Below are positions 9,631-10,098 of a stretch of 59,463 nt of DNA, in pieces. The DNA comes from Patescibacteria group bacterium (GTDB lineage: Bacteria > Patescibacteriota > Minisyncoccia > Moranbacterales > UBA2206). The stretch is from the NCBI GenBank assembly GCA_022711335.1, contig JAKLFF010000005.1, positions 1 to 59,463 of the forward strand. The letters are read 5' to 3'. Position numbers and translations under genes: made by a program. The notes under the pieces are model-generated. The model was not told the DNA's origin. It was given only the letters and a program-made list of their open reading frames with translations, and made no database searches. Positions within the stretch are counted from its first letter, which is position 1. The number at the start of each line of letters is the position of its first letter.

Positions 9631-9683
9631 TCCACCTCTCCCCTCGGGAGAGGTCGCCCCGCTTGCGGGGCGGGAGAGGGGAC
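9631..9683 (+). repeat. GC-rich hairpin element, left half-copy (flanks DUF559 gene)
   Basis: TCCACCTCTCCCCTCGGGAGAGGTCGCCCCGCTTGCGGGGCGGGAGAGGGGAC has the same hairpin layout as the left half of the full copies at 13530, 15131, 16539 and 28783. Confidence 0.75.
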
Positions 9684-9689
9684 TAAGCA

Positions 9690-10046
9690 ATGTACATAAA
9701 ACCACCACTGGAAAAAAAGAAGCTGGAAAGATGCAAAAAATTAAGAAAAACTGCCACCCCCCAGGAAATAATAGTCTGGTCAAGACTGCGAGCCAAAAGA
9801 TTCCACAATTTGAAATTCAAAAGGCAATATCCTGTCGGAAAATATATAGTGGATTTTATCTGTCTGGATAAGAAACTGATAATTGAAATAGACGGCTTCC
9901 AGCATAAAGAAGAAAACCAGGAAAGATATGACAAAGAAAGAACAAATTATTTAGAAGAACTGGGCTTTAAGATATTAAGATTTTGGAACAATGAAGTGAA
10001 TAATAACCTAGAGGGAGTATTTCTGAAAATAGAAGAATTTATTTAA
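9690..10046 (+). CDS. DUF559 (Vsr-like PD-(D/E)xK) endonuclease domain protein
   Basis: 118 aa: ...LRKTATPQEIIVWSRLRAKRF...FKRQYPVGKYIVDFICLDKKLIIEIDGFQH...LRFWNNEV, a typical DUF559 pattern. Confidence 0.8.
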   Translation: MYIKPPLEKKKLERCKKLRKTATPQEIIVWSRLRAKRFHNLKFKRQYPVGKYIVDFICLDKKLIIEIDGFQHKEENQERYDKERTNYLEELGFKILRFWNNEVNNNLEGVFLKIEEFI

Positions 10047-10047
10047 A

Positions 10048-10098
10048 CTTCCTCTCCTGTCCCTTCGGGACATCCTCTCCCGGAGGGAGAGGAGGAAC
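10048..10098 (+). repeat. GC-rich hairpin element, right half-copy (flanks DUF559 gene)
   Basis: CTTCCTCTCCTGTCCCTTCGGGACATCCTCTCCCGGAGGGAGAGGAGGAAC has the same layout as the right half of the full copies. Confidence 0.7.

Follow-up and report, generated by a model that had tools for sequence, protein, structure and literature searches.

A DUF559 gene bracketed by inverted triplex-type repeat modules in a patescibacterial genome, and its putative partnership with the repeat

DUF559 genes between inverted repeat modules

On contig JAKLFF010000005.1 of a Patescibacteria group bacterium (assembly GCA_022711335.1; positions 1 to 59,463, i.e. 59,463 nt, together referred to as the window), an intact gene of the DUF559 family was found between nrdR and nrdD, bracketed by two inverted copies of a GC-rich, triplex-type (TM) module that is also dispersed without any gene through the same genome (999 kb in 41 contigs, 39.7% GC). 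A position-specific association of DUF559 with such TM modules was shown to extend across phyla. Because of this association, and because of the RAYT/REP and Ssn/NTS precedents discussed below, we infer that the DUF559 protein would recognise the modules and play a part in spreading or maintaining them. We therefore tentatively read the locus as a nuclease–repeat partnership of the RAYT/REP or Ssn/NTS kind, with a rough probability of 0.42.

The cassette starts 4 nt past the nrdR stop codon (Table 1). Its left module consists of a pyrimidine arm CCACCTCTCCC, a loop CTC, a purine arm GGGAGAGG, a mini-hairpin GCCCCGC-TT-GCGGGGC and a purine tail GGGAGAGGGG directed toward the gene, and its fold as single-stranded DNA (ssDNA) scored z = –3.4. 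In agreement with the original prediction, which had been made from the sequence of the window, this module extends to 9683, leaving 6 nt up to the DUF559 ATG, and the right module adjoins the DUF559 stop codon, although it begins 2–3 nt past that codon and not 1 nt. The gene had further been described as lying between the two halves of a ~115-nt element that recurs without an open reading frame (ORF) elsewhere in the window. Bracketing by modules of that family stands, but on the left the module is of a diverged L type (71% identity to the L consensus, see below), and on the right it resembles the reverse-complemented L consensus (90% identity; 91% to the L consensus over 47 nt on the minus strand by blastn) more than the R consensus (74%). 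The window ORF is thus bracketed by two inverted family modules, and not literally by both halves of the 115-nt consensus.

An arrangement that does correspond to both halves is found at the one further DUF559 gene of the genome (contig C12, 23750-24097), whose product is 71% identical to that of the window gene (tblastn). There an L module lies upstream of the gene and an R module downstream, and the two show 90% identity to the respective halves of the doublet consensus. This C12 cassette is accordingly a doublet in which the ~13-nt linker has given way to the ORF, with a few nucleotides before it and 7 nt after it. Modules thus bracket both DUF559 genes, as the original prediction expected of such genes, and a genome-wide search with a hidden Markov model (HMM) of the module, built from the doublets, revealed no other gene flanked by inverted modules.

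Since the arms are low-complexity C/T and G/A runs, the likeness between the flanks and the gene-less copies might be ascribed to GC-rich hairpins arising by chance in an AT-rich genome. This explanation has a negligible probability. It is refuted by the HMM E-values of the half-copies (1e-7 to 1e-9; 2.6e-7 for the left and 4.1e-9 for the right flank when the whole 1-Mb genome is searched), by the core hairpin pattern (CYYCTCC N3-8 GGAGRRG), which occurs 48 times in the genome while the same pattern reversed occurs 0 times, and by the conservation of a five-part architecture with compensatory changes.

No promoter-like site was found between nrdR and DUF559, nor a terminator-like site at either module, suggesting that the cassette is probably transcribed as part of the nrdR–nrdD operon. 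The purine tail of the left module may in addition serve as a candidate Shine-Dalgarno sequence of DUF559. For the R-module end no such role is claimed: the distance from it to the next start codon is suitable in some copies, while the copy at 16537 has ~22 nt. Searching Rfam at gathering threshold yielded no match on the repeats and no intron.

The 118-residue ORF product is predicted to adopt a Vsr-like PD-(D/E)xK nuclease fold, as had been proposed from the window. It matched PF04480 with 132.4 bits (cut-off 20.6) over profile positions 2-107 of 109, and the solved DUF559 protein PDB 3HRL with 50-60% identity (E = 4.5e-24 with the single sequence, 1.9e-31 with a profile). In the active-site region, D46, E57 and H63 were invariant and D59 was at least 90% conserved among 24 sequences. 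The only domains found with Pfam were DUF559 and MTES_1575, both restriction-endonuclease-like, with no transposase, HUH/Y1 or GIY-YIG domain. The next-best solved relative after 3HRL was the homing endonuclease I-Bth0305I (3R3P), at a marginal profile E-value of 0.004 over 70 residues, and a single-sequence search gave no match to 3R3P at E <= 0.01. We know of no strand-transfer or joining chemistry for DUF559 as a PD-(D/E)xK nuclease. As far as we found, DUF559 is a widespread family, present in many phyla and with a solved structure, for which no function is in print; judging by titles and abstracts, no biochemistry-focused literature on it was found.

Table 1. Coordinates of the window cassette, its neighbouring genes, the gene-less doublets of the window and the genes carrying in-frame modules elsewhere in the genome. 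Module E-values refer to the search of the whole genome.
Feature	Position	Strand	Evidence or remark
nrdR, upstream host gene	9174..9623	+	Pfam Zn_ribbon_NrdR and ATP-cone; stop at 9621-9623
Left TM module, diverged L-type	9627..9683	+	Module HMM E=2.6e-7; parsed architecture
DUF559 ORF, 118 codons, intact, ATG at 9690	9690..10046	+	PF04480 E=7e-39
Right TM module, inverted L-type by sequence, tail toward gene	10049..10097	-	Module HMM E=4.1e-9
nrdD, downstream host gene	10156..12345	+	Pfam ATP-cone and NRDD
Gene-less doublet filling the yggU(DUF167)-comEC spacer	13527..13643	+	L 13527-13579 (+), R 13588-13643 (-); yggU-like stop at 13523
Gene-less doublet at the comEC Competence/metallo-beta-lactamase domain junction	15128..15252	+	
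Gene-less doublet, rpmF(L32)-nusB spacer	16537..16653	+	rpmF stop at 16527
Gene-less doublet, rplJ-rplL spacer	28781..28892	+	rplJ stop at 28753; L10 leader upstream
uvrB, in-frame doublet	C12:122272-124395		
ligA, two in-frame singlets, one each side of the KxDG segment	C12:63245-65506		
rnhB (RNase HII), in-frame doublet	C23:13025-13834		
ileS, in-frame singlet	C23:7937-11203		
dnaE, in-frame singlet	C23:14932-18552		
uppP, in-frame singlet	C1:433202-434029		
GT4 glycosyltransferase, in-frame singlet	C12:36762-37892		

Anatomy of the module and its likeness to BoxC/PIT/TMECO repeats

Because the L half of the ~115-nt element aligns with the reverse complement of its R half, the element can be described as an inverted doublet of one ~50-nt module, which exists in two stable subtypes and whose tails point inward in the doublet. 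The L subtype reads TCCTCCTCTCCC-TTA-GGGAGAGGA-TGCCC-GAAG-GGCA-GGAGAGGGA, and the R subtype, on the other strand, CCCCTTCTCCC-TTA-GGGAGAAGG-TGGCC-GTA-GGCC-GGATGAGGGA. Each module comprises five parts, namely a pyrimidine arm, a loop of 3-5 nt, a complementary purine arm, a short and variable second hairpin and a purine tail. A pyrimidine arm, loop, purine arm and third purine segment followed each other in this order in all 45 of the genome modules that were parsed (45/45), and the same order of parts was seen in the DUF559 flanks of relatives.

The tail is the mirror image, and not the complement, of the purine arm, with T occurring only opposite A; in the window family, the L arm GGGAGAGGA goes with the tail AGGAGAGGG and the R arm GGGAGAAGG with the tail GGATGAGGG. 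When modules with asymmetric arms from the DUF559 flanks of many bacteria were compared, the mirrored arm was the better fit to the tail in 42 of them and the direct arm in 8, with 20 ties (p = 1e-6). Because the tail obeys the antiparallel purine-motif rule, one DNA strand of the module could form a purine-motif intrastrand triplex, a fold that requires the strand to be single.

The second hairpin was perfect, with at least 3 bp, in 42/45 modules, and since these modules retain it with clearly different stem sequences (~12 of them; 21 stem strings, some nested, including GCCC, GGCC, GTCCC, GGTCCGCC, GTCATG and GCCCCGC) it is conserved by compensatory change. In fold calculations that modelled Watson-Crick pairs alone, the doublet at 16537-16653 scored as ssDNA z = –4.2 on the plus and –3.5 on the minus strand, and folded into four hairpins with a central stem between the L tail and the R lead.

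This architecture recalls the BoxC/PIT/TMECO repeats, recorded in hundreds of genomes from the 1990s onward. These are intrastrand-triplex repeats, surveyed by Holder et al. 2015 (who cite Bergler 1992 and Hoyne & Maher 2000), with the TMECO consensus CCCTCNCCC N3-6 GGGNGAGGG N3 GGGNGAGGG, and they also occur as inverted 'palindromic TM' pairs (PMC4666352). PIT/TMECO repeats were described as lacking promoter or terminator activity, strand-orientation bias and any link to mobile elements or a partner protein, and the terms ycjD, DUF559 and 'endonuclease' are absent from the text of that survey (PMC4666352). The modules studied here share the class-II order, the antiparallel mirrored purine tail and the A-to-T change only opposite A, and they are likewise G/C-rich, dispersed, mostly intergenic and also present as inverted pairs. 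They differ in that their second loop measures 8-37 nt (4 in two modules) and carries its own mini-hairpin in 42/45 modules, whereas the consensus has 3 nt there, and in that their doublets invariably follow the direction of transcription, some of them in frame within genes. No exact match to the TMECO consensus was found in this genome, and the ITxF finder, which permits loops of 1-6 nt (PMC4666352), would miss most copies because their second loop exceeds that limit. Judged by its sequence, the repeat family is therefore a long-loop variant of BoxC/PIT/TMECO and not a canonical member.

Association of DUF559 with modules in other genera and phyla

The nearest DUF559 loci belong to metagenome-assembled genomes of Candidatus Moranbacteria/Moraniibacteriota, and the genome studied here is probably a member of Moranbacteria. 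In a panel of 41 related genomes, all of different genera, DUF559 was present in 19, with 1-4 copies each. Hairpin-plus-tail modules with inward tails were found on both sides of most of the 22 loci of this panel and upstream only of four, and the upstream gene was co-oriented with the cassette in 19/22. Some sites were shared: loci L003, L006 and L008 have one upstream gene in common, which judging from its C-terminal sequence is probably atpG, and L003 and L006 also the downstream gene, while L001 and L002 share another site. At two loci of one genome (G026; L028 and L029) DUF559 and its modules lay in frame inside restriction-modification-type ORFs of >1100 aa and 421 aa.

A cross-phylum panel comprised 80 DUF559 loci, 72 of which had full flanks. 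Among these 72, a hairpin was found within 170 nt upstream of the gene in 57 (79%), within the same distance downstream in 43 (60%) and on both sides in 34, while control windows 340-520 nt away contained one in 7/136 (5%). Tail-bearing modules at DUF559 faced inward 51 times versus outward 24 times. An exact match to the TMECO consensus lay within 700 nt of DUF559 in 20/80 loci of other phyla; for E. coli ycjD, such a match lies 170 nt downstream and a degenerate arm covers the stop codon. Exact TMECO-consensus copies are present in the related genomes too.

The DUF559 tree contained several clades that cut across host families and was incongruent with the hosts, and copies within one genome usually fell into different clades. 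The window DUF559 is closer to that of relative G014 (79%) than to the second copy of its own genome (73%), and the latter two were not resolved as sisters. The type of end module tracked the DUF559 clade and not the host (L023/L024/L016 versus L012/L006): loci L023 (G011), L024 (G014) and L016 (G030) share CTCCCTTT/AAAGGGAG-type and CCCCCTTT-type ends, and the remaining cassettes of G011 and G014 have different end types. Because end-module type tracks the protein clade, the unit that is inherited or moved is TM-DUF559-TM, and it recurs in this form across phyla.

Three short, weak PF04480 matches in relatives (L025, L026 and L027 in G006, G008 and G017) proved to be Vsr (very-short-patch repair) genes with an FxDGxFWHG motif and without flanking modules, which makes them helpful as a negative control in judging the association with the repeat. 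Decaying cassettes had been considered as deletion intermediates and were rejected, as these three matches are Vsr genes and that of G021 is cut by a contig end; no deletion intermediates of cassettes were found among the relatives' short PF04480 matches.

These data bear on the explanation that gene and repeat have no functional link, the modules being structural punctuation (mRNA stabilisers or insulators) or an accumulation in spacers, and DUF559 an ordinary repair or restriction-related nuclease gene with a tendency to have them at its borders. The placement of modules, mostly in short operon spacers and variable protein loops, would suit such an explanation, as would the reported lack of promoter or terminator activity and of an associated mobile element for PIT/TMECO (PMC4666352). 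Nevertheless, we consider it quite improbable, as the enrichment is specific to both DUF559 borders across phyla (79% and 60% versus 5%, with 51 inward versus 24 outward), no other gene in the genome is so bracketed, and the whole unit occurs in unrelated contexts, even in frame in restriction-modification genes (L028 and L029).

Gene-less copies in the genome

The module HMM returned 58 non-overlapping matches genome-wide, corresponding to ~17 doublets, ~12 singlets and the 2 cassettes. Cassettes, doublets and singlets share one common architecture, with the nuclease gene of the cassettes taking the place of the doublet linker. The four full copies of ~115 nt that the original prediction had reported on the plus strand of the window are real (mean column identity 80%; Table 1), and its placements in the rplJ–rplL spacer and at the comEC junction are correct. 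All four had been said to lie just after a stop codon, which holds for those at 13527, 16537 and 28781. In the comEC copy, the stop codon of the N-terminal ORF (TAG, 15145-15147) falls within the loop of the first hairpin of the element, and the beta-lactamase part follows in a different frame, with an ATG directly after the R module. The doublet itself supplies the stop codon that splits comEC at a domain boundary.

Gene-less modules were located mostly in short operon spacers and variable protein loops, and many doublets occupied an entire operon spacer, 6-28 nt past the stop codon and 8-18 nt ahead of the next start codon. All 14 doublets that could be assessed (14/14), and both cassettes, matched the transcription of the flanking genes with the L module first (two-sided binomial p ~3e-5). 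Given the near-palindromy of the doublet, this co-orientation seems poorly explained by selection on the transcript; it fits better with a past as cassettes expressed by read-through or with a strand-specific process tied to replication.

The repeat had also been held responsible for junk translations at ORF ends. This understated the case, since several of them are true in-frame insertions: within essential genes, TM modules or doublets are read through as inserts of 17-46 aa (Table 1), and a membrane protein gene carries an in-frame singlet too. For UvrB, the 41-aa insert encoded by the doublet is missing from solved UvrB structures, and the alignment is broken there only, between residues that are adjacent in the structures. 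Orthology of the ligA insertions to those of other genera was considered and rejected: as these sites are naturally variable loops that take different repeats per genus, the shared position is no evidence of common descent. In relatives, the two LigA loops that take TM modules here carry a second, AT-rich repeat of ~7-nt period (AATTTCCAATTT...), apparently translated in frame into ISNFQFPNK-like peptides (G013, G014, G016, G017, G022 and G006; L171-L198). The same repeat forms long intergenic inverted repeats in the window at 12410-12540, 17184-17298, 30206-30273 and 34874-34941.

Two more repeats were observed in the window. A dispersed AT-rich repeat of ~110-130 nt occurs at 9056-9165, just upstream of nrdR, and at 34576-34685 (74% identical to each other), with further copies on contigs C1, C12, C23, C5 and C33. 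At the 3' end of the window (59055-59161), beside other GC-rich hairpins, lies a 52-nt inverted repeat (arms 83% complementary, 3 nt apart) of a sequence unrelated to the TM family.

Insertion of the window cassette

The genes nrdR and nrdD were adjacent in 28/29 related genera examined; none of those spacers contained DUF559, and one contained a single module. Because these 28 genera lack the cassette there, it must have entered the nrdR–nrdD spacer in the lineage of the window itself, which agrees with the landing between these genes that had been proposed originally.

Comparing the doublet linkers with the inner ends of the cassettes yielded short AT-rich matches alone (TAAGCTTT against TAAAGCTTT; GGGAAGGA(A)GT), too short to decide between insertion and deletion of the ORF. 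The AT(T) found beside both element ends is apparently part of the inverted termini. Small contigs had been taken as possible allelic variants and were rejected, as they belong to other organisms or contain other repeats (67-82% identity). Phages and plasmids were considered as vehicles for transfer, but DUF559 is close to absent from phage records (2 of 50,697) and rare among plasmid records (45 of 72,556), several of those listed being megabase-sized or chromosome-length.

In the nrdR–nrdD spacers of four relatives (G002, G011, G020 and G033; L056, L057, L059 and L067) we observed a long conserved inverted repeat, ATCCCGCACCAA...TTGGTGCGGGAT, with ~100 nt between its arms, and behind it, immediately ahead of nrdD, a GC-rich stem that is conserved as well. 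The window lacks this arrangement, which may be a regulatory RNA or operator.

Possible mechanism and competing explanations

In the proposed partnership, the DUF559 nuclease would recognise its own flanking modules, probably as folded single strands exposed in replication, repair or DNA uptake, and would nick or cut there. Host repair might then copy the element, or homogenise its copies, by gene conversion or template switching with the modules as homology. Such copying would spread the cassette as well as the gene-less copies, as proposed for RAYT/REPIN, and the gene-less doublets would be non-autonomous members.

Whether the repeats depend on a resident DUF559 was approached by counting the core hairpin pattern. 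Across the 41 relatives, counts were higher in DUF559-positive genomes after removal of two hairpins per gene (Mann-Whitney U test, p = 0.013; 0.024 without the genome of the window). In an even, class-wide sample of 151 genomes, 17 of which contained DUF559, at least 4 hairpins occurred in 8/16 positive versus 6/134 negative genomes (Fisher test, p = 5e-6). Because many positive genomes have no further hairpins (9/16 in the class sample, as well as the relative G033, have none beyond the ends of the cassette), cassettes evidently come with their own ends.

Several points weigh against the proposed partnership. The class-wide difference stems largely from the two flanks of each gene itself, as it was not significant after subtracting 2 hairpins per gene (Mann-Whitney U test, p = 0.23). 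Moreover, some DUF559-free genomes are rich in tail-bearing modules, namely G020 (24, some of them in frame in ligA and in a ksgA-like gene), G091 (21) and G057 (12, on a single contig that is 100% complete). A further DUF559-free genome, G107, has 29 hairpins, most with one core; in four copies that were read (L201, L204, L207 and L213) the flanks are alike, with apparent terminal inverted repeats CTTAATCCGTA...TACGGATTAAG, so that the TM module of G107 seems to lie inside a different repeat resembling a miniature inverted-repeat transposable element (MITE). Gene-less copies thus expand in some hosts only, and modules can persist or ride other elements without a resident DUF559.

Signs of recent movement are also lacking. 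On contigs from several other samples, an exact DUF559 match (16 contigs) or an exact NrdR match (10 contigs) was always found in the order nrdR-DUF559-nrdD, and none of these 26 contigs revealed an empty or alternative cassette site. No consistent target-site duplication was found at 16 element borders. The doublets are pairwise 66-92% identical (median 77%) and the two DUF559 genes 74% identical in nucleotides; most copies in the genome are old and probably fixed. With regard to the protein, a PD-(D/E)xK nuclease would by itself be unable to transpose DNA, the module recognition suggested for DUF559 is so far purely associative, and clade-specific ends would also result from inheritance or movement of the unit without recognition by the protein.

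The original idea of an autonomous selfish element with non-autonomous derivatives is thus supported in part only: known strand-transfer chemistry, target duplication and polymorphism on the 16 + 10 contigs are all missing, the copies are old, and module-rich genomes exist that are free of DUF559. The likeness to a MITE and its autonomous partner lies in the ORF-less copies, which share both terminal modules with an ORF-bearing copy in which the ORF replaces the linker. Unlike in such a pair, however, neither a transposase fold nor a target-site duplication was found, and the ends are complex folded modules that also occur singly.

The abundance of modules in DUF559-free genomes, together with their apparent residence within another MITE-like repeat in G107, would suit a different explanation, according to which the repeats spread by other routes (slippage in replication or repair, another enzyme, or other MITEs) and DUF559 is a homing-type rider. 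The nuclease would cut the centre of a doublet and be copied in via the L and R homology arms, leaving doublets as empty sites and not as derivatives. The ORF indeed replaces the linker exactly, the C12 cassette corresponds to an L+R doublet with the ORF added, and the closest characterised structural relative is a homing endonuclease, albeit at a marginal E = 0.004. Subsets of doublets with a common linker (c15131/c16539 and C39/C1a) further indicate that these multiplied as doublets. Resident doublets are however not needed for the presence of DUF559, as seen from G033 and 9/16 positive genomes of the class sample, which have no extra hairpins. Furthermore, no related genus has a doublet in nrdR–nrdD (one has a single module), and merely 2 of ~17 doublet-type sites are occupied, both by old genes, so that homing would be inactive here. 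We regard this explanation, the main rival of the partnership, as rather unlikely.

Ultra-small bacteria are thought to depend on natural transformation. In a further explanation, DUF559 would belong to a domesticated system resembling Ssn/NTS, cutting single-stranded TM modules and thereby restricting or modulating DNA that enters the cell or recombines, for instance in natural transformation. The repeats would mark DNA for this purpose, having spread long ago or as a by-product. In favour of this, the gene layout matches that of NTS-ssnA-NTS, a system shown to cleave ssDNA specifically and to affect transformation (PMC11893778). Moreover, the cassette is intact and fixed, the protein shows good conservation, and the triplex fold needs a single strand. 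Yet the patchy occurrence of DUF559 (19/41 related genera and 17/151 genomes of the class) and its tree, incongruent with that of the hosts, both fit a selfish element better, and the in-frame modules in essential genes suggest tolerated parasitism. Such domestication thus seems unlikely.

Relation to known systems

One precedent for a partnership of nuclease and repeat is SsnA, a small GIY-YIG nuclease that is encoded between NTS hairpins and cuts exactly those repeats as ssDNA; the authors remarked on the insertion-sequence-like layout, and NTS repeats are rarely located within genes (2%) (PMC11893778). Both systems combine a small single-domain nuclease gene between inverted hairpin repeats with gene-less repeat copies that are dispersed in tens to hundreds, and in both the repeat variants track protein variants. 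They differ in fold (PD-(D/E)xK, Vsr-like here, versus GIY-YIG), in the repeat (a triplex-type module here versus a CGTC-tagged NTS hairpin) and in the presence here of several in-frame TM modules in genes. Repeat cleavage is proven for Ssn, whereas for DUF559 it is putative.

In REP/REPIN-RAYT systems, attributed to work by Nunvar in 2010, Bertels & Rainey in 2011 and Ton-Hoang in 2012, an enzyme gene reportedly lies between inverted copies of a structured intergenic repeat. Dispersed singlets and inverted doublets, one or few enzyme genes flanked by the same repeat, moderate ages and slow spread are common to these systems and ours. However, RAYT is an HUH/Y1 transposase (IS200/IS605-like) that cuts and rejoins ssDNA, while DUF559 has a predicted hydrolytic nuclease fold, and REP, a simple imperfect hairpin, has no triplex-type tail.

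Rickettsia palindromic elements (Ogata et al., in 2000) are said to be palindromic repeats lying in frame in essential genes and read through as peptide loops. The in-frame read-through in uvrB, ligA, rnhB, ileS, dnaE, uppP and the GT4 glycosyltransferase gene resembles this; but those elements form another sequence family and are without a protein gene, and most copies here are intergenic.

I-Bth0305I, finally, is encoded by a group I intron and possesses an additional DNA-binding region (PMC3239194). It is a small nuclease encoded by selfish DNA and, after 3HRL, the best solved match to the DUF559 profile. The similarity is marginal, though, and DUF559 is free-standing between modules, with no intron according to Rfam and no empty allele on the 26 contigs.

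The original prediction knew of no formal description of such an element. This holds for the association itself, since in the literature mentioning DUF559, judging by titles and abstracts, no report of an association with a repeat was found. The repeat, in contrast, can be placed as a variant of the published BoxC/PIT/TMECO repeats (PMC4666352), and RAYT/REP and Ssn/NTS (PMC11893778) are precedents. In one table row of a further study, 'DUF559 domain-containing protein' appears as an entry enriched in predicted targets of inversion (PMC9881135), an enrichment that would be explained by the flanking inverted repeats. As far as we have seen, the partnership of DUF559 with TM modules is thus unpublished, and its mechanism is putative.

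Implications

In a broader form, which we regard as possible but doubtful, DUF559 would be the missing protein partner of BoxC/PIT/TMECO repeats throughout bacteria, a small Vsr-fold nuclease reading the folded single-stranded module and, by cutting it, driving the copying, homogenisation and spread of cassettes, doublets and singlets. The folded module at the ends of the gene might then be a true DNA triple helix, and the copies spread in this way would include the in-frame ones in essential genes.

In practical terms, these elements cause spurious ORF extensions, split genes (such as comEC here) and assembly breaks in metagenome-assembled genomes. The genome studied here, with its ~1 Mb, two diverged cassettes, ~17 oriented doublets and in-frame insertions in uvrB, ligA, rnhB, ileS and dnaE, is suited to defining the minimal module by comparison and to picking in-vitro substrates. 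The association gives DUF559 and the BoxC/PIT/TMECO repeats each a testable function, namely the binding or cutting of the folded module. A link between the two would also carry the newly recognised pattern of small nucleases housed between structured repeats of their own over to a third enzyme fold and to triplex-type DNA. If true, the partnership would constitute a third independent nuclease–repeat symbiosis beside RAYT/REP and Ssn/NTS, and the first to be built on a PD-(D/E)xK enzyme and a non-B DNA fold.

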